Shown: positions 1 to 45,006, numbered from the stretch's first letter. The stretch is 64,000 bases of DNA from an uncultured Gammaproteobacteria bacterium (GCA_964592785.1 CAZQHU010000003.1:3901-67900); one strand, 5' to 3'. Made by a program: numbers and translations. Notes: a model not told the origin generated them from the sequence alone.

Positions 1-3000
1 GACGACAAAGTTTTTCAAAACCAGTAGCATAGACCGATACTCCTCGAGAATTGGTGTAAGCTTTACAACCCAAGGCCGCACCTGGGAAAGCATCACTCGG
101 ATTATCATCACAAGCTAGAGGCACATCATAACCGGCTGAAGTTTTCCAAGAATCTTTGACCCTATATAGGTGATCATCCAAACGAGTAATTTGTATATTA
201 TCAAAGAAATAACTGACTGGTTGTGTTCCTTGAGAAATAACAAAACGTAATTTGGCTACTTGGCTACCATCCCCAGTAAACTGTACTGGACCAAGTTTGT
301 ATTGTTGCCAACCAGTGCCAATACTCACACTAAAATCACCTTGAATATCACTGGAAGTAAAGCGCCCCTGAACTCCATTTTCTTCAAAATAAATATTACT
401 AATCACTGTCTCTGAACTACCTGTGCCTCTGGCCCAAAAACTTATTTCATACCAATCATTCCTTTCCAAAGTATTGGTGGCAAAAACATATTCAAAAGCT
501 CCAGCTTCTCCGGCCACTTGAGCTTGAACGTTCAAAGAATATTGCCCGACGACGATCGATTCGGGGCGAACTCTAAGATTTACATTATCAGTGAGACTAG
601 ACCAACCCTCCATGGCCTCATTGAGAGCATCGCTAGAAGTACCGGTCGGTTCAAAAGCAAAAGTTAAAATTTGTTTGATATTATTGCCAGCATTACCAAT
701 ATAGGCGCGACAGCCATTGGCAATGGCTGGACAAGAAGTGGATTCTCCGGTCCGAGAAATAGTCCAATAAACACAAGAACCATTCTCATAAGTTCCCCCG
801 CGATAACAACGGTTACATTCTCCATTTTGCATTACCCCGCCTCTGTTTGAACAAATAGCTGGATCACTAATACTATCATCCACATAAAATTCTGAGACTG
901 TTTTTCGGAGTGGATGACAACTTTGGTCCACAGTCACAGTTTCTTTGAGTAAACGATAATAAACTTGACCTTGGTCATCATAGAGCGCCCGGCAATCTTG
1001 TAGAGCCGCTCCAACCAAAGCTGGGCTTTGGAGCAACAGAGCATAAGCACTGGCATTACAATAAGTATAATTAAACTCCAAAGTTTGTTTATTATCATCC
1101 ACATAAGCTGGTCCCACTGCCAGTTCATTTTGCATTTCTGGGCTAAGACCCAAACCAGGACTTTGTAAATAATTTGCCTCTTCACTATCTACCGGCATCA
1201 AGCGATGAGTTTTCAAAACATAACCTTGATTGGCATCCCCTTCCCAAGAGTAGTAAGTTTTTTGGTTATTAGTTGTCGGTCGTTCACAATAACGAAGATC
1301 AGTATAATATTCCAATCCTTCTCCACCTTTGTTCAATTCATCAATATTGGTAAATTCATCACAACCAGCATACTGTGGTTCACAAGCTCGACCATCCAAA
1401 GGATTGAAATACATTGGGAAAACCACTGGAGAAAAGTTGGTTTTTTCTTGTTTATAAGTATCATAACCAACACATTCTTGACTGCAACTATTCTCTCCCA
1501 CTATGCCAGGTATTGTCACTCCGCCAGCAGTTGGCCGATAATTTTCACAACCCACTTCATCGGCCAAACAGACCTGAGCAAAATTTTTACATTCTGCCGG
1601 ACGATCGGCCAAAGATGCCAGCTCGACTGTGGTCCCTGGCCAATCTATTTCATCATCGGTCAAGTCTATATCATAACAACCCAAATAATCCGGGGCCCGA
1701 CGTAAATATACATCACCTGCTAGTTGTCCATCGTCAGTAATGCCACTAAATAAACTACAACCATCAGCACCCGAAGAACAAGTGTAGTTCTTGACTTTGT
1801 CATTCAAAAATAAAACTTGCGTACGACCCAACTCTTTGCGATCTTGCCAATCAGGATCGTCATCTATTTGTTCGCTATTTATCCATTGACCATTATTTTT
1901 TTCCAAAGAATAAGCCCGACAACCCACTGACTCACTATTACAAACTCCATAATCCAGAGTCCTGGCCAAATAAGAAGTCAATCGGCCATTACGATCACTA
2001 AAAGTAGTACAGGTATTATAATAAGGTTCACAACTAGTACCACCAATATCCCAAATATTTTTTTCTTTCAAACAATAACTAAAATAGCCCAGATTTTCAG
2101 GATTTTCTTCTTCTACTATGCGAGTAGAAATATCCACACAAACTTCTTGCCTTTGGGCCGATTCGCTATTTGTAAGAATTGGTCCTACTACTTTGGTCTC
2201 GCAACGAGCTTCAGGACTCTTGATAATCCAGTTGGGGTCAATAAGATGACAAAAGGGATGCGCTGTGCTAGGTTTGGCTTTGTCTGAAACACCATTAACT
2301 GTATCACCCAACCTGCCACTATTATTGGTATCTTCATAATCACAATCATCAAAACCTTGCACCACTTTACCCAAAGTCCAATCCTGTGGATTGTCTGGGC
2401 TGGCTTTCAAAGCTGCCAATTCAAAACCAATCGGCAATACTCGGGCCTTGCGTAATTTTTGTAAATTGGAATAACAATACCCTCGTAAAAAACAACCTGC
2501 AACATCTGTATTATCTGTCACTCGACGTGGCGAAATAAGTGGCCAGTCAGCATGAAGCATCCCATCTGTCAGAGCTTGCGCTATGGTTACCGGTTGATTA
2601 GTGCGAGCTCGTTGCAGAGCATCCTGTAAACCAGTATCAATAACACAATTATTTAATCCAGGATTATCAGGACAAGCGGCAAATTCATCGCTTGGAACAT
2701 AATTTTGTAGCTGTTGTGTAGAAACAGAAGCAATCAAAAATCCAAAAGTTTGTTCAGCTTGTTTGCGATTGTTAGCCACTTGCTGGGAATAAAAATCTAT
2801 CACATTATTACCAGATGAACCGCTTTTGTCACCGCTCAAAAGTCCAGAAGCCCAGCTGGTCAAACTTTTCAAAAGTTGAGAGGTCAAAGTATTGAGAAAA
2901 ACAGAGGCGGCCATTGGTAAAAGTTGTAATGAACCAGAACCATAAACGCCGGCAATCTGGCTGGTGCTTAATTCTGAACTTTGTTTAGAAGAAATTGATT

Positions 3001-3778
3001 CAGTTTCTTTTTTCACCACCTCAGCAGGAGTTTTTATTTTGCCACTAATAAGATCAGTGACAGCTTTAAATCCACCACCCTCAAGCCGAGAAGTATTGGC
3101 CCCGGCAATGGCATTAGCATTTATACGATCGATCCTACCCATAGCCCCAAGAGCAATACCAAAATCACTTTCTTCTATGCGGATGGAGTTGGCAAAAGTT
3201 TGTGATAAAAATTTACTGGCCCCAGCCCCATATCTTTCTTCAAAAGAATCCGCACTCCAAGCATTGGAAAGTTTTTGCCAATTACAAGAAGACTGTGGAC
3301 CGGTGCCGGCTTGTTTTACTGTTGGATCTGAATAAAGATTACGCAAACCTACTTGCAAAAAAGTATTCAAACGAATATCTGGAGTCTGACAAAGATTCAA
3401 ACCAAACTCTGTACCCAACTGTTCAATGGCGCTGGCCGCGCTGTCTAGAGCCACTCCTTTGAAATAAGTGCCAGCATCTTGATCAAAAACTAACGGCTTT
3501 TGACCTTTGGAACCAGAGACTACCGCCATGGCCGCGTCATAAGCCAATTTGCGCATAAAATAAGAAGCTGCTTGAAGCAAGGCTGACAAAGCAGCTGACT
3601 CTAGAGATTTCAAAATCTGGTCAGCCGAAACTTTACCAGTAAAAGCCGCTGTAATCGCCGCATCCATCTGGGCTTGAGCTGGTTTGGCAAAAGCTAAAAT
3701 TCCAAATAACTGAACAAAAATAAAGATCGCTACCATTAGTCCGAAAAATCTTTTTTTTGTCCTAGTAAAATTGAACAT
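1..3778 (-). CDS. Giant secreted cysteine-rich surface protein, over 1259 aa; C-terminus lies beyond the left edge of the window
   Basis: The minus-strand frame starts at ATG 3778 and reads MFNFTRTKKRFFGLMVAIFIFVQLFGILAFAKPAQA-QMDAAITAAF..., a signal peptide with an AQA cleavage site. The codon phase was checked at both ends (triplets starting at plus-strand positions congruent to 2 mod 3) and spot-checked for stops in several stretches. It is missing from the ORF track because there is no stop inside the window. No other long ORF occupies 1-3780. The body is Cys/Gly/Asn/Asp-rich, typical of CPR giant surface proteins. Confidence 0.6.
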   Translation of the reverse strand, partial: MFNFTRTKKRFFGLMVAIFIFVQLFGILAFAKPAQAQMDAAITAAFTGKVSADQILKSLESAALSALLQAASYFMRKLAYDAAMAVVSGSKGQKPLVFDQDAGTYFKGVALDSAASAIEQLGTEFGLNLCQTPDIRLNTFLQVGLRNLYSDPTVKQAGTGPQSSCNWQKLSNAWSADSFEERYGAGASKFLSQTFANSIRIEESDFGIALGAMGRIDRINANAIAGANTSRLEGGGFKAVTDLISGKIKTPAEVVKKETESISSKQSSELSTSQIAGVYGSGSLQLLPMAASVFLNTLTSQLLKSLTSWASGLLSGDKSGSSGNNVIDFYSQQVANNRKQAEQTFGFLIASVSTQQLQNYVPSDEFAACPDNPGLNNCVIDTGLQDALQRARTNQPVTIAQALTDGMLHADWPLISPRRVTDNTDVAGCFLRGYCYSNLQKLRKARVLPIGFELAALKASPDNPQDWTLGKVVQGFDDCDYEDTNNSGRLGDTVNGVSDKAKPSTAHPFCHLIDPNWIIKSPEARCETKVVGPILTNSESAQRQEVCVDISTRIVEEENPENLGYFSYCLKEKNIWDIGGTSCEPYYNTCTTFSDRNGRLTSYLARTLDYGVCNSESVGCRAYSLEKNNGQWINSEQIDDDPDWQDRKELGRTQVLFLNDKVKNYTCSSGADGCSLFSGITDDGQLAGDVYLRRAPDYLGCYDIDLTDDEIDWPGTTVELASLADRPAECKNFAQVCLADEVGCENYRPTAGGVTIPGIVGENSCSQECVGYDTYKQEKTNFSPVVFPMYFNPLDGRACEPQYAGCDEFTNIDELNKGGEGLEYYTDLRYCERPTTNNQKTYYSWEGDANQGYVLKTHRLMPVDSEEANYLQSPGLGLSPEMQNELAVGPAYVDDNKQTLEFNYTYCNASAYALLLQSPALVGAALQDCRALYDDQGQVYYRLLKETVTVDQSCHPLRKTVSEFYVDDSISDPAICSNRGGVMQNGECNRCYRGGTYENGSCVYWTISRTGESTSCPAIANGCRAYIGNAGNNIKQILTFAFEPTGTSSDALNEAMEGWSSLTDNVNLRVRPESIVVGQYSLNVQAQVAGEAGAFEYVFATNTLERNDWYEISFWARGTGSSETVISNIYFEENGVQGRFTSSDIQGDFSVSIGTGWQQYKLGPVQFTGDGSQVAKLRFVISQGTQPVSYFFDNIQITRLDDHLYRVKDSWKTSAGYDVPLACDDNPSDAFPGAALGCKAYTNSRGVSVYATGFEKLCR

Positions 3779-3792
3779 AATTTGCTAATTTT

Positions 3793-4518
3793 TTATTGGG
3801 TTGAACCAGAGGGAGTGGTTTCTTTGAGATAATCCACTCCTGATTCCAAGGCTGAAGCTGAATCCAAAATCTGCTCTCCTCCAACTTGTCCACCGGTTTG
3901 TTCTGACAAAAGTTCACCAACCATTTTCATCAAAGTTTCATCATCAATCTTGCTCAATTCACTTTCAGAAATGCCACCAGAATCAATCAGGAGTTGTCTG
4001 ACCTTGGCTGGATCTGACAAAGTGTACAAAACATTGGAAATATCATCATTTTCTACACCAGTAAGCCCGGCTTGAGACAAGACATCCACTGGAGTTACAA
4101 AACCAGAAGCCACTGGAGAAGTCATAGGTTCCACTGGAAGATTGGGGATAGATTGAGCACTTTCACAAACTTGGCCCTTGGGACAAAGAGGATCAGAACC
4201 AGATGTTATTTCTTCTTTATCACTCATACCATCTGAATCTGAATCTGGTAAATAGGGGCTGGTAAAATAAAAATTTAATTCTTCCCAATCATTCAAGCCA
4301 TCGTGATCAGTATCAATACTTTGCAGACGAGCTTCTTGATTGTCCAAAAGTTCAGACAAACCACTATTGTCCGAAAGATGAATAGCAAAAGGATTATAAA
4401 TAGTATTACGCATCTGTAAGACTCCCAAACTAACCGCCAATAAACCAAAAACTAACAATAAGACAAAACCTGTCTTTTGTGTATTTGTAAGACCGTCTTT
4501 CTTCCGGCTATCAAGCAT
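3793..4518 (-). CDS. Membrane-anchored protein with two Ca-binding-type DxDxDG motifs (DTDHDGLNDWEE, DSDSDGMSDKEE; thrombospondin-3/dockerin-like); probably co-transcribed with the giant protein
   Basis: ORF track. N-terminal TM helix FVLLLVFGLLAVSLGVL. There is a 14-nt gap to the start of the giant ORF on the same strand. Confidence 0.55.
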   Translation of the reverse strand: MLDSRKKDGLTNTQKTGFVLLLVFGLLAVSLGVLQMRNTIYNPFAIHLSDNSGLSELLDNQEARLQSIDTDHDGLNDWEELNFYFTSPYLPDSDSDGMSDKEEITSGSDPLCPKGQVCESAQSIPNLPVEPMTSPVASGFVTPVDVLSQAGLTGVENDDISNVLYTLSDPAKVRQLLIDSGGISESELSKIDDETLMKMVGELLSEQTGGQVGGEQILDSASALESGVDYLKETTPSGSTQ

Positions 4519-4661
4519 AAATAGATAACCAATTATGATCCCATTATAACAAAAAAATCACTTTTGAGCAATTTTTTTGTTAAAACTGGGGATAACATAG
4601 ACTATATTATGACAAAGCTTAAATTTTCAATCACCAATTTCCAATTCTCAATAAATTTTAT

Positions 4662-5549
4662 TCACTTGATTCCCAAGTTTTTCAATTTCTCTATGATTCT
4701 TTTCCAATCATCTACAGCCAATTCTTCAGCCCTGATTTTTTCATTATTCAAAACATCTTTTAAAACATTTTTTACTTTTTCATTCTCAATTTTCAATCCA
4801 ACTGATAAATTTTTATGCAACTGTTTCCTCTTGTTTGCAAATCCAGCTCTCACTACTCTAAAAAACTCCTCATCACTAATCTTTTCCCTCCCCTCGTAGG
4901 GGAGGGAAGGGATGGGTTTTGCTTTATTGTTTTCATGTTTTAATGTTTTAATGTGTAAAATCGCACTATCCACTTTCGGACTGGGCCAAAAATTTCCTCG
5001 TGAAACAATATCCACAATTTTGGGCTCACTATAATATTGAACTGAAACTGCCAGTAAACTCATATCGCCAGGTTTTGAACAAATCCGTTCGGCCACTTCT
5101 TTTTGTACCATAATAGTAATTGATTCTGGTTTATTTTCCAATTCTAAAAGAGCGCGTAAAACATTGGAAGTAATTTGATAAGGAAGATTGGCTACAACTT
5201 TGTAATTTATAATTTGAAATTTGAAATTTGAAATTTGAGTGAGTGCATTTCCCCAAATGATTTCTAAATTTTTTAATTTCTTGATTTCTATTTCTTCTTG
5301 CCAATACTCCCTCAACTTTTTCTCAATTTCAAATGCTACTACTTGCCTCGCCTTTTCTGCCAGGGCAAAAGTAAGCACCCCAAAACCCGGCCCGATCTCG
5401 ATCACTGTATCAGTCTTAGCCACTCCCGCCGCCTCAATCATTTTTTTTATCGGCCAATCTTGAATAAGATAATTTTGACCATACTTCTTGCTGGGAGTAA
5501 GGTCGTATTTACTACAAAGAGATTTGAGGATTGTAGGAGTAAGGGACAT
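4662..5549 (-). CDS. rsmA: 16S rRNA (adenine1518/1519-N6)-dimethyltransferase RsmA/KsgA; contains an in-frame palindromic insert and a 7-nt x4 tandem repeat
   Basis: KsgA-like motifs (GQNYLI, EIGPGFGVLT, NLPY). Confidence 0.85.
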   Translation of the reverse strand: MSLTPTILKSLCSKYDLTPSKKYGQNYLIQDWPIKKMIEAAGVAKTDTVIEIGPGFGVLTFALAEKARQVVAFEIEKKLREYWQEEIEIKKLKNLEIIWGNALTQISNFKFQIINYKVVANLPYQITSNVLRALLELENKPESITIMVQKEVAERICSKPGDMSLLAVSVQYYSEPKIVDIVSRGNFWPSPKVDSAILHIKTLKHENNKAKPIPSLPYEGREKISDEEFFRVVRAGFANKRKQLHKNLSVGLKIENEKVKNVLKDVLNNEKIRAEELAVDDWKRIIEKLKNLGIK

Positions 5550-7462: not shown

Positions 7463-7858
7463 CTACATCACAAAATCACCTTGTGACAATTTTTCTGCTA
7501 ATTTAATTTCTGACCAAAGCATAGCGCCAATTTCCTCACCCAATTTTATCGCATGTTTGTATTGTTCATTTTTTATCCAGTCTGTATCTAAAGCAAAATA
7601 ATATAAATATCTTGATTCTCCAAGCGAACCATAGGACATTTCATAAAAATTTAACTTAACTTTCGGCCTTCTTCTACAATATCCTTCTACATAATTTAAA
7701 ATAACTGACAATGATGTCCTGCGCAATTGAGAAACTGATGAATACATTTCTTGTTTTGGAAAATCTTCTGTTATTTTGTAAGTATATTTTACAAATTCAT
7801 GCATTAATTTTTTTAATTTATTCTGAAATGGCGTCATCGTTTTTTCAAGCATAATCAT
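7463..7858 (-). CDS. Four-helix-bundle protein of the 23S rRNA intervening-sequence family
   Basis: Typical CPR four-helix-bundle protein. The track ORF 7463..7915 overlaps prfB, so the start was trimmed to the internal Met (MIMLEK...). Confidence 0.6.
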   Translation of the reverse strand: MIMLEKTMTPFQNKLKKLMHEFVKYTYKITEDFPKQEMYSSVSQLRRTSLSVILNYVEGYCRRRPKVKLNFYEMSYGSLGESRYLYYFALDTDWIKNEQYKHAIKLGEEIGAMLWSEIKLAEKLSQGDFVM

Positions 7859-7890
7859 TGTATAATTTAGTGATGTTGTGATGTAATGAC

Positions 7891-9000
7891 TTAGTGATTC
7901 AGTGACTTTCGCCATCTCAAATAACTTTCTACAAACCCATCCAGATCTCCATTCAAAACTCCTTCATCATCAGTCGTTTCGTGATCAGTTCGCAAATCTT
8001 TTACCAAATGATAAGGATGAAGTACATAAGAACGAATCTGGCTCCCCCATTCTGGAGATTTGTATTCACCACGTAATTTTTGTTTTTCCGCTTCTTCTTC
8101 CTCGTCTTTTATTTTTTGTAATTTGGATAATAAAATCTTCATCGCCACTTCTTTATTTTGTTGTTGTGATCTTTCATTTTGGCATTGTACAGTAATACCG
8201 GTCGGCAGATGAACAATCCTCACTGCTGAATAAGTAGTATTCACGGATTGCCCACCCTTGCCACCACTCATAAAAGTGTCTATACGTAAATCTTTGGAAT
8301 CAATCTGAATTGTTTCAGATTCATCAAGCTCTGGAATAACTTCCACTAAAGCAAAAGAAGTATGGCGCATTTTCTCGGCATCAAAAGGTGAAATCCGCAC
8401 CAAACGATGCGTGCCGTGTTCTGATTTCAAATGTCCATACGCATGATCCCCCTCAACCCGAAAAATAATTGATTTAAACCCAGCTTCCTGCCCTCTGGTT
8501 TCATCCAGAATAAAAACTTGCCAGTCCTTTTTTTCACAATAACGAAAATACATACGACTAAGCATCTCTGCCCAATCTTGGGCTTCGGTCCCACCCGAGC
8601 CAGCATGAATCGCGACAATAGCACCGTGATCATCATATTTTTCACTCATCAATGTTGTAAATTCCAACTTTTCAACTTGTTCGCTTGCCAATTCATATTG
8701 TTTCTCAATCTCTTCCCGTAAATTTACATCCTTGTCTGCCTCATCAAATCTCGCCATTTCTAATAAATCATTTATTTGTTGAGACAATTTTAACCAATTA
8801 TTTTGTTCACTTTGTAAATAACTAAGTTGCTTGCTTATCTTGGCTGCATTTTCTTGATCATTCCAAAAATCAGGAATATTCATTTTTTCTTCCAAATTTT
8901 TTATTTCTTGCTTTTTTTGTTCCAATTTTAACATCACTTGTAAATCTACAAGTTTTTTATTTAACCTTTCCAAAGATTGAACAAGTTCATGCATTTCCAT
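7891..9000 (-). CDS. prfB: Peptide chain release factor 2
   Basis: SPF and GGQ motifs (RISPFDAEK; [12 protein letters not shown]). The ORF is continuous, with no programmed +1 frameshift. Confidence 0.9.
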   Translation of the reverse strand: MEMHELVQSLERLNKKLVDLQVMLKLEQKKQEIKNLEEKMNIPDFWNDQENAAKISKQLSYLQSEQNNWLKLSQQINDLLEMARFDEADKDVNLREEIEKQYELASEQVEKLEFTTLMSEKYDDHGAIVAIHAGSGGTEAQDWAEMLSRMYFRYCEKKDWQVFILDETRGQEAGFKSIIFRVEGDHAYGHLKSEHGTHRLVRISPFDAEKMRHTSFALVEVIPELDESETIQIDSKDLRIDTFMSGGKGGQSVNTTYSAVRIVHLPTGITVQCQNERSQQQNKEVAMKILLSKLQKIKDEEEEAEKQKLRGEYKSPEWGSQIRSYVLHPYHLVKDLRTDHETTDDEGVLNGDLDGFVESYLRWRKSLNH

Positions 9001-30514: not shown

Positions 30515-31573
30515 ATGAATAATAAATACAAGCAAATCAAAGAAAAATATTTAATACTCGAAAAACAACTACAAGACCCAGCTGTGCTTAATGATACACA
30601 AAAATTAAAAAAAACTTCCCAAGAATATGATGATCTAAAAAATACTTATGAAAAAATAGCTATTTTGGAAAATCTTGAAAGAAATCTTGGCGAAGCTGAA
30701 GTCATTGCCAATGACGAAAACAACGAAGAATTGAGACAGCTGGCAGAAATTGAAGTGGAAGAATTGAAAACTAAAAAACAAGAGCTGGAAAAAGAGTTAG
30801 AAGAACTTACTCGTCCTCAAGATCCATTGGATAAAAAAAATGTTATTATAGAAATTCGTGCTGGCGCTGGTGGTGATGAATCGGCTCTCTTTGCTGGTGA
30901 TCTCATGCGTATGTATCTCAAATATGGAGAAGGTAAAGATTGGAAAGCCAGTCTCATTAGTGAAAATCAAATCGGTATTGGCGGTTACAAAGAAGTCATT
31001 TTTTCTTTATCAGGAAAAAATGTTTATCGGGATATGAAATATGAAATGGGTGTGCATCGCGTACAAAGAGTGCCGGAAACTGAAAAATCTGGACGCATCC
31101 ACACTTCCACTGCTTCGGTGGTAGTGCTTCCTGAGATTGATGAGATTGAATTCAAAATCGATCCCAAGGATCTACGCATTGACACTTTCATGGCTGGCGG
31201 ACATGGCGGACAAAGCGTCAATACTACTTATTCAGCAGTCCGCATTACCCATATTCCTACCGGCCTCGTCACTCAATCACAGGATGAAAGATCTCAACTT
31301 CAAAATAAATTAAAAGCCATGAATGTGATGCGCGCCCGACTCTACGAAATGGAGAGAGAAAAGCAAACCGCGGAAATTGATGCCAAACGCAAAAGCCAAA
31401 TCGGCACTGGGGATCGTAGCGAAAAAATCCGCACTTACAACTATCCCCAAGATCGCATCACTGACCATCGCATCCACGAAAGCTGGAATAATATCGGAAC
31501 CATACTAAACGGAAACTTGAATCCAATAATTGATGCACTGAGAAAGGTTGACTATGAAAGACTTGATAGTTAA
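30515..31573 (+). CDS. prfA: Peptide chain release factor 1
   Basis: GGQ motif ([12 protein letters not shown]) and a PxT-type tripeptide region (PET). Confidence 0.9.
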
Positions 31574-34193: not shown

Positions 34194-34393
34194 TTGAAAA
34201 TTTTCAAACGGCTTATAAATTAGCCAATTTTTGACTAATGTCTAGGCCGTTTGAGGCTTAGGGAACAGAAAAACTACTGTTGAAGGAGTGGCCTGTATAG
34301 GGGGCAACTACCGAGACCTTTTTGAAGGTCATTACAGCAAGTTTCTGTTTTCCCGACTTCCTGTTCCGCCCGAGGCGGACAAGAGGAGGTACC

Positions 34394-35161
34394 ATGCCCA
34401 GTTTCTCCAACAAGTTCCTGAAAGTGGAGAGCGACCGCTCTCCGGTGGGACAGCGGACCCGTCTGCTGGTCCTCTGGTCATACTTCATGGCCATTCTCCT
34501 GGGTGGCCTGTGGCTGATGCCCAGCTCGATGGCAGTGGCGAACCTGATCCTGATGGGTTTGAACACCCTCATCTTCGCCCGCTGGGTGTCCAAGAATGGG
34601 GTGGATTACTACCCCAAGAAGGAAAACAGAAAATACCCCCCGTTTCTTCCGAGATGGGGAGAGGGTACGCGTCGGTACTACTTCGTACCGGCGATCATGA
34701 CCAGCACGATCTGGTCGGCAGTGTTTTTCGGCTGGAACACCTGGTTCAGCGAAAACTTGTTGTGGATTGTTTTGGGTGTTATGTGCATCCTTCTCGCCAT
34801 CTTTCTGGTCCCCTACCTGTGGGGTAAGAGGGCATCCAGGAAAAGCAAGAGATTCATGGCCCAGCAAGACGAGGAGAGACGAAAGCAGAAGGAGATCGAC
34901 GAGCTGATTCAAGCGGCGATGGGAAGGAAGGAACTCGAGATTTACGAGAGGGAGAAAGAGTTCCTTCGTGACCTGGCAGTAATCATCGCCAACTTCCACT
35001 ACGAAAAGGGAAGAAAGCCCTCGAAGAGGGACGCCGAACTCCGGCAGAAACTCGAGGCGATCCTCGAGTACTTCGTCGGCCCGAGCGAGGCCGAGGCCAT
35101 GGTCGCCGAGGAGCTCTACCGCCTCACTCGTGAGGCGAAGAAGGCCACGGTGGCCACTTAG
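34394..35161 (+). CDS. GC-rich (about 57%) membrane protein of 255 aa: about 4 TM helices plus a charged coiled-coil C-terminus (cassette d)
   Basis: GAGGAGG lies 5 nt upstream of ATG 34394. The overlapping track ORFs 34258-34999 on other frames are GC artefacts. gttcgttcttt follows the stop. Confidence 0.6.
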   Translation: MPSFSNKFLKVESDRSPVGQRTRLLVLWSYFMAILLGGLWLMPSSMAVANLILMGLNTLIFARWVSKNGVDYYPKKENRKYPPFLPRWGEGTRRYYFVPAIMTSTIWSAVFFGWNTWFSENLLWIVLGVMCILLAIFLVPYLWGKRASRKSKRFMAQQDEERRKQKEIDELIQAAMGRKELEIYEREKEFLRDLAVIIANFHYEKGRKPSKRDAELRQKLEAILEYFVGPSEAEAMVAEELYRLTREAKKATVAT

Positions 35162-35180
35162 ACACTGTTCGTTCTTTAGA

Positions 35181-35232
35181 GGGGCGCCGACCGGTTGAGT
35201 TGAGATTTACTTCTCCTCCCGGTCGGCGCCCC
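35181..35232 (+). repeat. Conserved 3' hairpin of cassette d (14-bp stem GGGGCGCCGACCGG / CCGGTCGGCGCCCC)
   Basis: Cassette e carries GTCCGACCGG/CCGGTCGGAC, a compensatory variant, and shares the loop start ttgagtt. Confidence 0.7.
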
Positions 35233-35239
35233 GATGTAA

Positions 35240-35306
35240 TCAAGTGTTTGTAAAATATTTTGTAAATAGTTGAAAATAAAAAATCCGCTGATAAGGCGGT
35301 TTTTTT
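35240..35306 (+). repeat. Conserved cassette 3' module, copy B, plus terminator
   Basis: tcaagtgtttgtaaaatattttgtaaatagttgaaaataaaaaat-CCGCTGataaGGCGG-ttttttt. Confidence 0.8.
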
Positions 35307-35341
35307 GTTTGTCATCCCTTTTGTAAAAGGTAAGATGGGTA

Positions 35342-35370
35342 TTGACAAAAACACAAAAATAAGCCAATAT
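35342..35370 (+). promoter_or_regulatory. Promoter TTGACA-17-CAATAT of cassette e
   Basis: Shares the spacer motif aaaataagc with the promoter at 34165. Confidence 0.55.
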
Positions 35371-35408
35371 TGTTATAGGAAATTCGTCATCTACAGGAGG
35401 TTTTCTCA

Positions 35409-35747
35409 ATGGCAAATAATTATCACTTGTCTGGTCCTTTTTCCTTCGGTATCCTATCTCCAAAGAACAAGGAGGAAAAGTACAGTATTTTCTTCCTGTC
35501 AATTCTTAGGGGCGACGAAGTGCACCGAGCCTATCTCTGCTACTCCAAGCAACAAGTTCGAAACGTGTTTGACCAGTTCAGACCTTGTATTGCACCAGAC
35601 GAACTCAAGATAGCGGAAGATTTCGTAACCCATAACCAGCACGTACCCGAATTCTCGAACCACAAGATGAGGGAATACAACGGACGAGAGGCCGAAGTGT
35701 TCACCGCGCTCATGTCCACTGGGCACTACGCAAGCATTGCCAACTGA
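35409..35747 (+). CDS. GC-rich small protein of 112 aa (cassette e)
   Basis: AGGAGG lies 8 nt upstream of the ATG. A tttcgttctttag motif and a hairpin follow the stop. Confidence 0.55.
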   Translation: MANNYHLSGPFSFGILSPKNKEEKYSIFFLSILRGDEVHRAYLCYSKQQVRNVFDQFRPCIAPDELKIAEDFVTHNQHVPEFSNHKMREYNGREAEVFTALMSTGHYASIAN

Positions 35748-35792
35748 CCATCCGCCCGAGTCAGGGCAAACCAAATTGTTTCGTTCTTTAGC

Positions 35793-35841
35793 GGGTCCGA
35801 CCGGTTGAGTTAATGCCTCCTTGGCATTCTCCCGGTCGGAC
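35793..35841 (+). repeat. Conserved 3' hairpin of cassette e
   Basis: GTCCGACCGG-ttgagtt...-CCGGTCGGAC. Confidence 0.65.
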
Positions 35842-40629: not shown

Positions 40630-41556
40630 TTACCTTTCTCCTGCCCGCAAATACTCCCTGGAATCAAAGATATTTATAAGTGGATGCACTCTAATTTCCG
40701 TCACATAAAGACCATCAATATAAGAACGCAAATCCACATGGCGAGTCTCCCGAGAAGTAAATTCTGCCTCTGGTAAATAGAGAATGCCCACTCGACTGCC
40801 CTGGTCCAAAAGCTCTACATAAAAATTGGCTTCCCAAAAACCATAAGCAGAATTATTGGTCAGGTCAAATTCAATAAAATTGGCTGGACTACCACTAATG
40901 CGACTGATGGGAGAAAATTCAAAATTTTCTACTAGCCAAAGATTACGTTCTGCTGTGTAGCCCGAAATATCCGGGTAAATATGACGATCCAAATGATACC
41001 ACTTGATATTTTTGATAACCAATCTGGCTCCACTGGGAAAATAATCACTGGTAAAACCCAAATAAACCAGCGGTCGCGTGCCTGGTAAAACAATTGCCTG
41101 CGCCAAAGGGGTTTCTCCACCGCTAAAAACAAACTGATATTGAATGCCAGCAAGCCAGCGTTCATTATTATTAGTCAAATCCACAACAAAATCATAACTA
41201 GATGGGCTTACTGTTTGGTAAACCTGAGGACTGCTAATGATAAATGGACGAGGCGCGTAAAAACTTTTTAAATTGTCATAATTTTCTATTTCCAAAACCT
41301 GACTATTCAACATCTCTTGGTCTCGCCAATAGCCGGTCGTAAAATAATACCCCCAATAAAATAAACTATAACCAACCGTAACGACACAAAACAAAATCAA
41401 AGCCCCCAAACCTATCTGACGCAAACGCAGTTTATGCTCCACATACCAACGGGACAACTTAAACTGACTATTGGTAAACTCCCCAGTAGGATCAATATAT
41501 TTTTCCAATTTATCTTCGGTTTTTTTGATAAACATATTATCAATATTATACAACAA
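40630..41556 (-). CDS. Membrane-anchored hypothetical protein
   Basis: ORF track; one TM segment after a charged N-terminus. Confidence 0.45.
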   Translation of the reverse strand: MLYNIDNMFIKKTEDKLEKYIDPTGEFTNSQFKLSRWYVEHKLRLRQIGLGALILFCVVTVGYSLFYWGYYFTTGYWRDQEMLNSQVLEIENYDNLKSFYAPRPFIISSPQVYQTVSPSSYDFVVDLTNNNERWLAGIQYQFVFSGGETPLAQAIVLPGTRPLVYLGFTSDYFPSGARLVIKNIKWYHLDRHIYPDISGYTAERNLWLVENFEFSPISRISGSPANFIEFDLTNNSAYGFWEANFYVELLDQGSRVGILYLPEAEFTSRETRHVDLRSYIDGLYVTEIRVHPLINIFDSREYLRAGER

Positions 41557-41620: not shown

Positions 41621-43906
<2,286 letters not shown>

Positions 43907-44151: not shown

Positions 44152-45006
44152 TCAGTCCTCTTGACCGAGCGGGAAAAACTTCCAGACCATCTCAGGTGGA
44201 GGTGGATAGCCGAGTCCAGTCCAGTAGTTGCGATAGCAGAGAGTTTTCTCATCGGACACAGCCAGCCTGAATTGAACACACCTCACGTCGTACCCTTCGA
44301 AAGGCAAACGTCTGCAAATCTTGAAATTCTCTGCTCCCAAGTTCAAAGCCTGCTTCATCCGCAGGAAAAGATCCGGCTTGTGACGTATGATGGCCAGAAG
44401 GATCGCCACCCCCTGCACCACCCCAAGAGGACGAGAGTCACTCATAATGGGCGACCTCGTGGCCTCGCGCCAGGATTTGGCCGTTGGGTTCGGGAAATGG
44501 CCCATAGTGTCCGCTAGTGTTGGATAGAATGCCATAACCCCCGCGGGCATTTCGGCATCTATCTGGAGATCTTCACCCACTTCGTACTTGCGGTCCTCAG
44601 ACAGTTCCAAGCCGGCCGCTTTCACCAAGTCCTGAACAGTCACGCCCGGAAGGCAATGGAAAAGGAGAGGCATCTCTCCATCCCCAAACACCGCTCCGAT
44701 ATCGGTGATGAACTGCTGGAGTTCCTGCCCCCCTTTCCGACCAAATTCCGGCTGAATGAGGTTGAGCGCCTCTTCGACCGAGAGCAAATGGGGGGTGTAC
44801 TTTTCGCCCCAGATATCCCTCTTCCACCAATCCTGCACGGCGCTGACCACGCAGTTCACCAAGGACTCCCTGAGGACAGCCTTGGCGTCGATCGCCGCCT
44901 GCACCACCTCACGGGGGGCATGTTTGGCCACCAGCTTCATCACCTTGGCGAACTCGTCGGCCTGACCAGCAGAAACCGCGCTTTCTCCGTCCCTTTTCAT
45001 GACCAT
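44152..45006 (-). CDS. GC-rich (about 58%) hypothetical protein of 284 aa (cassette h)
   Basis: Long ORF in a GC island. gccgttcctttcc follows the stop. Overlapping track ORFs on other frames are GC artefacts. Confidence 0.55.
   Translation of the reverse strand: MVMKRDGESAVSAGQADEFAKVMKLVAKHAPREVVQAAIDAKAVLRESLVNCVVSAVQDWWKRDIWGEKYTPHLLSVEEALNLIQPEFGRKGGQELQQFITDIGAVFGDGEMPLLFHCLPGVTVQDLVKAAGLELSEDRKYEVGEDLQIDAEMPAGVMAFYPTLADTMGHFPNPTAKSWREATRSPIMSDSRPLGVVQGVAILLAIIRHKPDLFLRMKQALNLGAENFKICRRLPFEGYDVRCVQFRLAVSDEKTLCYRNYWTGLGYPPPPEMVWKFFPLGQED

Follow-up and report, generated by a model that had tools for sequence, protein, structure and literature searches.

The stretch of DNA analyzed here (64,000 nucleotides of GCA_964592785.1, CAZQHU010000003.1:3901-67900; hereafter the window) bears the title of an uncultured Gammaproteobacteria bacterium. 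At its beginning it carries, both on the minus strand, a gene for a small bitopic membrane protein of 241 amino acids (aa) and the first part of a gene for a giant, cysteine-rich protein. In most of the lineages that carry it, this pair heads the operon of a type IV secretion system (T4SS), and we lean towards the view that the two proteins work together with that system.

Gene content and family of the pair

The open reading frame (ORF) of the giant protein starts with an ATG at position 3778 and continues on the minus strand for 1259 codons without any stop, down to position 2 of the window (feature 1..3778, minus). It represents the 5′ ~43% of the gene, as judged from the stop-free translation and from the ortholog described below, and it is missing from the ORF list only because the frame runs past the window edge. 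A first-pass annotation, made from the sequence alone, had reported this truncated ORF of at least 1259 aa, preceded 14 nt upstream on the same strand by a 241-aa protein with a transmembrane (TM) anchor, and both genes are indeed present as described. The gene of the small protein (3793..4518, minus) was delineated from its ORF, its motifs, its hydropathy and a family alignment. The 14-nt spacer (3779..3792, minus) contains no terminator-like site, a scan of positions 3500-4900 having returned 0 sites, and we infer that the two genes are co-transcribed. Upstream, and outside the module, lies rsmA/ksgA, which encodes the 16S rRNA dimethyladenosine transferase (4662..5549, minus; Pfam RrnaAD, 151.5 bits). 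A gap of 143 nt separates rsmA from the small gene and holds a promoter-like site, TTGAAA-18-TATAGT (4601..4630, minus; 10/12 in a consensus scan, a pattern match alone), which is a possible operon start.

The full length of the giant protein is given by a related contig, L081, which reproduces the order of the window (rsmA, 241-aa gene, giant gene) with a DNA identity of 94.7%. Its giant protein, P0015, is 96% identical to the window protein across all 1259 residues and has a total length of 2912 aa. An in-frame stop was looked for on full translation and none was found, the ortholog being one single ORF. Between the window and L081, the ratio of non-synonymous to synonymous polymorphism (pN/pS) was 0.18 and 0.10 for the two genes. 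Both ORFs are therefore under purifying selection, and thus correspond to real genes.

A homology search with the single sequence returned 10 partial relatives only, and the full-length relatives came from a profile search. The scan of species-representative genomes revealed 77 loci encoding a giant protein, mostly as a single ORF of 2800-3250 aa. These loci are mainly labeled Magasanikbacteria or Patescibacteria, and a large group is titled 'uncultured Gammaproteobacteria', which we take to be placeholder names from automated submissions of metagenome-assembled genomes (MAGs). The nearest relatives of the window are Magasanikbacteria MAGs, and these sequence affinities support the assignment of the window organism to the candidate phyla radiation (CPR)/Patescibacteria, as a Magasanikbacteria-type bacterium; bacteria of this kind are ultra-small. 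An exhaustive profile search, using the first ~1000 residues of the giant protein as the query, yielded 1497 clusters at 50% identity for E ≤ 1e-3, and 1189 for E ≤ 1e-30. The source name of the members was 'hypothetical protein' in every case seen. No Pfam or NCBIfam model covers the giant protein (window protein and P0015, as well as 11 relatives in Pfam), and these two databases together with a PDB profile search gave nothing beyond a weak match to a carbohydrate-binding module (CBM). Also, our search of the literature for giant or Cys-rich Magasanikbacteria proteins found no description of the giant protein or of its partner.

The pairing of the two genes is invariant. The small gene was found upstream of the giant gene in 75/75 loci with upstream sequence, and was directly adjacent to it in 72 of them; RsmA precedes the pair in 64/80 loci. 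In a few loci the giant gene is split at varying positions into two or three ORFs (L002 10001-18868, L003 1748-10680, L013 and L035). A two-gene version of the giant protein (~2000 aa plus ~1000 aa), derived from L002 and L003, was rejected: as the break points differ between these two loci and most genomes have a single ORF, they represent split copies and not two genes. Such splits are either frameshift errors of low-coverage MAGs or real pseudogenisation.

Domain organization of the two proteins

On the basis of its sequence, the giant protein looks like a Sec-exported and disulfide-rich protein. A Sec signal peptide is predicted at aa 1-36 (3671..3778, minus; KKR, hydrophobic core, AQA/Q) from the sequence and a hydropathy heuristic. 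The N-terminus, MFNFTRTKKRFFGLMVAIFIFVQLFGILAFAKPAQA followed by Q, combines a basic n-region, a single hydrophobic stretch at aa 11-29 (Kyte-Doolittle hydropathy 2.55) and an A-x-A site, with Ala36 conserved at ≥90% in the alignment of the giant proteins. A hydrophobic N-terminal segment is present in 145/157 full-length relatives. These features agree with the signal peptide proposed in the first-pass annotation, although the segment may instead be an uncleaved signal anchor.

The signal peptide is followed by a Cys-poor, helical N-terminal domain (aa ~37-360; 2699..3670, minus), recognized from the alignments and from an AlphaFold2 model in which its pLDDT (predicted local distance difference test) ranges between 27 and 59. 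Its conserved motifs include GFKxVTDLISGxIKTPA and LPMAASVFLNTLTSQLL, and no Pfam or PDB match was obtained for it. Next comes a Cys-rich region (aa ~361-1030; 689..2698, minus), defined by the positions of the cysteines and by hairpin-like C-x5-7-G-C-x2-[YFL] repeats, of which about ten copies occur along the giant protein. This region gave no family match either. The part of the giant protein encoded in the window contains 38 Cys, i.e., 3.0% of its residues against ~1.0% in the long ORFs of the window, and the median for full-length members is 102 Cys (3.4%). The enrichment in Cys, Gly and Asn announced earlier is thus real for Cys, while Gly (8.4 vs. 6.4%) and Asn (5.8 vs. 4.8%) show only a mild rise. 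By contrast, the many C-x-x-C spacings that were also announced reduce to one CxxC (C988/C991), and the spacing that recurs is C-x6-C, in 8/37 intervals. All 35 Cys within the first 1200 aa are conserved at ≥90% among 68 sequences (35/35), which fits structural disulfides.

Two AlphaFold2 models were examined, for aa 1-1200 of the window protein and for aa 1713-2912 of P0015. The first has a mean pLDDT of 59.8, with confident parts at aa 360-480, 800-1020 and 1035-1200; pLDDT reaches 80-95 in the Cys-rich sub-domains at aa 360-480 and 800-1020. When this model was used in a fold search, the matches were dominated by a module at aa ~1035-1200 (179..676, minus), a lectin-like beta-sandwich of the CBM4/9/22 type. 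The modeled sandwich matched CBM22, CBM4, CBM16 and CBM11 folds at 12-17% sequence identity. With Pfam, CBM_4_9 was detected at 20.5 bits (E 6e-4), below its gathering threshold (GA) of 25.9, and was seen in 2/11 relatives. In the model, this module has the CBM4/9/22 fold, and it is the one extracellular domain recognized in the giant protein; cohesin, Big, CARDB and VWA modules were looked for and gave no match. The module would share its fold with CBM4, CBM9 and CBM22 of glycoside hydrolases, but its identity to them is low, its CBM_4_9 match is sub-threshold and no recognizable enzyme is attached to it.

The small protein is a genuine bacterial protein with thrombospondin type 3 (TSP3) repeats. 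Pfam TSP3_bac (PF18884) matches it over two stretches with 32.6 bits, above the GA of 25. Its TM anchor (aa 16-34; 4417..4473, minus; hydropathy 2.53), within the conserved sequence QKtGFvlLl...LQ.RNtiYgPF, precedes the two TSP3-type repeats (aa ~63-114; 4177..4332, minus), which were located by PF18884 and by a DxDxDG pattern search. The predicted Ca-binding loops are DTDHDG (aa 69-74) and DSDSDG (aa 92-97). In the alignment of 72 homologs, the TM anchor, both TSP3 repeats and the CPxGxxC that follows are conserved, and the C-terminal half is variable; two DxDxDG motifs were found in 54/72 homologs, and the TSP3 features in 54-68/72. In NCBIfam, the small protein gave weak matches to the TSP3 proteins MtsD and CglD (~14 bits, for equivalog cut-offs of 400-800). 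CglD and MtsD of Myxococcus are Ca-dependent proteins of cell-surface cohesion and motility. The small protein resembles them in passing the TSP3_bac threshold, but they carry long repeat arrays, whereas here two repeats are borne by a bitopic protein of 241 aa.

The first-pass annotation had described the two loops as of the dockerin or TSP3 kind, and the pair as an arrangement resembling cohesin and dockerin, in which the Ca loops of the small protein would form a dockerin docking onto a cohesin module carried by the giant protein. The pair resembles those of cellulosomes in that one partner has two Ca loops (here DxDxDG loops spaced by ~23 residues, in a protein anchored to the membrane) and the second partner has a beta-sandwich. 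However, TSP3_bac was the only family found in a Pfam scan of the small protein at E ≤ 1, dockerin not being matched, and no cohesin match was found in the window protein, in P0015 or in 11 relatives. In the models of aa 1-1200 and 1713-2912, the beta-sandwich is CBM-like. Of the two descriptions of the loops, only the TSP3 type is thus retained, and these family and fold tests effectively exclude a cohesin-dockerin system, to which we attach a very small probability.

The C-terminal part of the giant protein is more difficult to interpret. For the last 1200 aa of P0015, the model obtained is of poor quality (mean pLDDT 50.8), and the fold search gave no match below E 0.6, the best E value obtained. 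This part includes ~660 Cys-poor residues at ~1960-2620 of P0015. The last ~290 aa are conserved across the family, with invariant Cys and Trp and a VQVLDNWGWCNG motif. Within this conserved C-terminal domain, outside the window, a TSP3-like stretch, DYNGDGVDEEDTDFDGLSD, stands beside a PKD-like VDWRDG motif at aa ~2663-2681 of P0015. As a TSP3-like stretch is also found in the giant protein, both partners may bind Ca2+.

These C-terminal data bear on whether the giant protein could be an offensive protein, i.e., an effector resembling polymorphic toxins or an enzyme degrading the host wall, which Sec would export for use against the host cell, with the T4SS as a neighbor fulfilling a separate but related role. 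The protein is giant, secreted by prediction and Cys-rich, and comes from an organism that is probably an episymbiont. Most Patescibacteria classes rarely have a VirB1-type wall hydrolase in the vicinity of virB4 (PMC12102498), so that a hydrolase function is 'missing', and the ~660 Cys-poor residues, like the ~1000 residues without structural assignment, leave room for such an activity. Nevertheless, Pfam, NCBIfam and the PDB profile search gave no toxin, peptidase or glycosidase family, and the last 1200 aa resemble no known fold at the E value given above. The C-terminus is conserved across the family and not polymorphic, and no toxin family was matched in Pfam or NCBIfam, which does not correspond to a polymorphic toxin. 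Also, no small immunity-like gene consistently follows the giant gene, T4SS or housekeeping genes being found there instead. An offensive function thus appears improbable to us.

Regarding attachment to the cell, none of the 157 full-length giant proteins (0/157) has an LPxTG motif in its last 80 aa, and only 1/157 has a hydrophobic C-terminal segment. It is therefore plausible that the giant protein, having neither LPxTG nor its own C-terminal anchor, relies on a separate membrane anchor.

Association with type IV secretion genes

In L081, a gene encoding a protein with 7 TM segments begins 14 nt past the stop codon of the giant gene. This VirB6-like protein has no direct Pfam match itself, and is 45-49% identical to proteins that match Pfam TrbL/TrbL_3. 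The VirB6-like protein of L002 matches TrbL with 27.1 bits (GA 25.9), and TrbL_3 is a precomputed match among relatives. The order found in relatives is small TSP3 protein, giant protein, VirB6/TrbL-like protein, two proteins without assignment (~330-520 aa and ~420 aa), PrgI/VirB3, a TrsD/TraC-like protein of ~229 aa, VirB4 and, often, ComFC. The VirB4-like ATPase of the relatives matches DUF87, AAA_10 and P-loop_TraG. For example, a Pfam rescan of L095 gave PrgI at 40.1 bits (GA 27) and P-loop_TraG at 97.6 bits; a ComFC-like gene comes next. No relaxase and no coupling protein were seen in the flanks examined.

We also used the reverse approach, in which 80 metagenome loci were picked by the TM domain of the VirB6-like protein. 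Upstream sequence of at least 3.5 kb was available for 48 loci; 39 of these had a giant gene upstream of VirB6 (median gap 849 nt), and in 17 of these 39 it was the ORF adjoining VirB6. Downstream, PrgI was present in 48/50 loci and VirB4 in 43/45. In the genome set, adjacency to VirB6 is spread over many deep branches of the giant-protein tree, which was built by the unweighted pair group method (UPGMA) on identities. The linkage persists where identity falls to ~28-40% for the giant protein and 35% for VirB6. In a distant subgroup with a giant protein of ~2700 aa and a small protein that is 38% identical, the order is rsmA, small gene, giant gene and, after 10 nt, the VirB6-like gene. Same-strand spacers of 10-49 nt between the giant and VirB6 genes occur in the distant lineages L081, L085, L041 and L042. 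These data show that the pair heads the T4SS operon in most lineages.

We therefore somewhat favor the reading that the pair forms the first two cistrons of a chromosomal T4SS operon of the monoderm type (similar to mating-pair formation class FATA) and that its products function with this T4SS. As the best reading of their role, we infer an adhesin and its anchor serving the T4SS. An adhesin-anchor arrangement had been suggested before and remains plausible in view of the invariant pairing, the absence of LPxTG and the lectin-type sandwich. The T4SS operon context had been missed, and the position of the pair at the 5′ end of this operon changes what attachment would serve. The giant protein would be exported by Sec with cleavage of its signal peptide, and would be stiffened through many disulfides. 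Non-covalent contacts with the TSP3 repeats of the small protein, loaded with Ca2+, and/or with the VirB6-like protein would keep it at the surface. Its lectin-like and Cys-rich modules would project and bind glycans in the envelope of the host bacterium (for the CBM-like module, sugar binding is a prediction), and this binding would dock the T4SS channel against the host. The giant protein would in this way fill the role played in other T4SSs by LPxTG adhesins such as PrgB, or by pili. We place less confidence in these specific anchoring and glycan-binding steps than in a function with the T4SS.

Several observations weigh against this interpretation. The T4SS genes are not inside the window, which ends within the giant gene, and L081 ends within the VirB6-like gene. 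The link to the T4SS is one of synteny only, and the contacts between the small and giant proteins, and between the giant and VirB6-like proteins, are putative. In 9/48 VirB6 loci, no giant gene lies upstream. In one clade of 14 loci, the pair is followed by aspartyl-tRNA synthetase (AspRS) and not by the T4SS, an arrangement confined to that clade. Toxin-antitoxin (TA), transposase and Avd-like genes often lie between the giant and VirB6 genes. Also, most of the giant protein (aa 37-360, 490-800 and ~1960-2620) has low-confidence models without a fold match. Finally, the pair is linked more tightly to RsmA, a protein without a role in the T4SS, than to the T4SS itself, so that conserved order alone is weak evidence.

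Several of these observations would be expected if the giant protein were a general surface protein with its anchor (an adhesin, a structural protein of the wall or S-layer type, or a glycan-scavenging lectin), its proximity to the T4SS being an inherited gene order without functional coupling. The order RsmA-small-giant (64/80 and 75/75) is more conserved than the order giant-VirB6, the pair stays beside RsmA in the clade where AspRS takes the place of the T4SS, mobile and TA genes interrupt the giant-VirB6 junction, and a CBM fold suits any glycan-binding surface protein. Such a protein without coupling nevertheless seems rather unlikely to us, given the 10-49 nt same-strand spacers in several distant lineages and an adjacency to VirB6 maintained across very deep divergence. 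The gap upstream of the small gene, with its promoter-like site, also sets rsmA apart from the pair. The reading that we prefer remains that of two proteins serving the T4SS.

Two observations were made on these flanks. HEPN/nucleotidyltransferase pairs of the TA type and a REP-type transposase-like ORF recur just 3′ of the giant gene (L007, L008, L011, L020, L022; L006, L012, L054), and this region looks like an insertion hot spot. The genes upstream of the pair in the AspRS clade were considered as displaced T4SS parts and rejected, since they encode DUF4012, DUF11, RNase III, NusB and FemAB.

The T4SS itself is already known. Patescibacteria possess a T4SS similar to Gram-positive conjugation systems, without relaxase or coupling protein, which is essential for the epibiotic growth of a Saccharibacterium (PMC10633639), and a phylum-wide survey (2025) reported VirB4, VirB3, VirB6, TrsD and VirB2-like pilins (PMC12102498). 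The cluster described here resembles this chromosomal T4SS (Wang et al., 2023; Quinonero-Coronel et al., 2025) in the VirB6-like, PrgI/VirB3, TrsD/TraC-like and VirB4 proteins encoded downstream of the pair in relatives. It is likewise chromosomal and near ksgA, with comF at its end: KsgA is enriched near virB4, and comF occurs in the loci of class ABY1 (PMC12102498). The giant and TSP3 proteins, however, are absent from the component lists of both studies (PMC10633639; PMC12102498). In the literature searched, neither protein is described, nor is their position in front of the T4SS genes. The extracellular part of the Saccharibacteria T4SS is thought to be an array of VirB2-like pilins (PMC10633639; PMC12102498), whereas we found a weak pilin-like match in a distant subgroup only. 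It concerns a ~410-aa protein encoded downstream of VirB4 (L160 18493-19740; cluster.13, L149-L165), with a T4SS_pilin match at E 6.5e-4, below threshold; it is a possible VirB2-like pilin, restricted to this subgroup.

Gram-positive T4SSs normally use surface adhesins and not pili (PMC12857230), and the survey reports 'no adhesins, such as PrgB' in Patescibacteria (PMC12102498). Like PrgB, the aggregation substance of pCF10 (PMC12857230), the giant protein is a large surface protein, by prediction Sec-exported, encoded with a monoderm-type T4SS, and carries a lectin-like module whose proposed ligands are polymers in the envelope of the partner cell. However, no sequence or domain relationship between it and PrgB was found, Pfam giving no polymer-adhesin or Antigen I/II match. 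It also lacks LPxTG, is more than twice as long, contains ~100 conserved Cys and has a TSP3 membrane partner of its own. We tentatively raise the possibility, which we would not yet call probable, that the pair represents previously unrecognized structural components of the T4SS, namely an extracellular, host-recognizing 'head' that would take the place of pili or of LPxTG adhesins and would determine the host range in a large and uncultivated CPR lineage.

In cultivated Patescibacteria, no machine other than the T4SS has been shown to be essential for life as an epibiont, and the pair is a concrete candidate for the part of it that touches the host. It would fill the slot of the adhesin that the 2025 survey did not find, in a large lineage where the family of the giant protein counts ~1500 clusters at 50% identity. 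Should the association with the T4SS be one of position only, the giant proteins still constitute a large, lineage-wide family of unannotated surface proteins, which is less remarkable.

Two further features of the T4SS cluster were observed. After a domain of 6-8 TM segments, VirB6-like proteins bear C-terminal tails of 600-1700 aa, rich in Lys, Glu and Ala and coiled-coil-like (L081 10655-12907, L041 13614-17808, L082 20403-24266, L101). With total lengths of 900-2160 aa and charged tails, these proteins recall the extended VirB6 of Rickettsiales (PMC7648143). The resemblance concerns the length and character of the tail alone, and a neighboring gene, not the pair. Also, a ComFC-like gene, encoding a phosphoribosyltransferase with a double zinc ribbon, closes the T4SS operon (L095 11674-12387; cluster c10, in 15 loci). 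This hints at a link between the Magasanikbacteria-type T4SS and DNA uptake, as was noted for ABY1 (PMC12102498).

Other features of the window

Upstream (5′) of the pair, the window encodes GroEL, peptide chain release factor 2 (RF2), an Avd-like ORF, Sua5, DUF4015 and RsmA, an order also seen in relatives. RF2 (7891-9000) and RF1 (30515-31573) are both encoded in the window, so that all three stop codons are used, which fits translation with table 11.

Two regions stand out by their composition. At 34200-35800, an island of ~50% GC in a genome of 38% GC contains no clean long ORF except a membrane-like ORF of 279 aa (34322-35161). No Pfam match was found in this island, and Rfam gave sub-threshold matches only (anti-hemB-like, 31.9 bits; Trp_leader-like, 25.8 bits); foreign DNA is a possible explanation, as is an RNA not described so far. 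Between gyrB and nusG, an ORF of 284 aa (44152-45006, minus) has a GC content of 54-59% and no Pfam match, and its composition suggests horizontal acquisition.

We also looked in the window for dnaA or an origin near the locus, without finding either, and the scanned ORFs included no dnaA or dnaN. At ~41600, between an ORF at 40630-41556 (minus) and gyrB (41678-43906, plus), gene orientation flips from minus to plus and the cumulative GC skew stops falling. This position, ~40 kb from the locus, could be an origin-like divergence point of replication.

Finally, the Avd-like ORF (7463-7915, minus) lies between Sua5 and RF2 and overlaps the start of RF2 by 25 nt. It encodes a four-helix protein similar to 23S-rRNA-IVP/bAvd (84.3 bits). 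In relatives, bAvd-like copies occur at varied sites, the T4SS cluster included (L082 2821-3177 and 26627-26989; L084 6009-6383), and these ORFs look like a mobile or selfish small gene.

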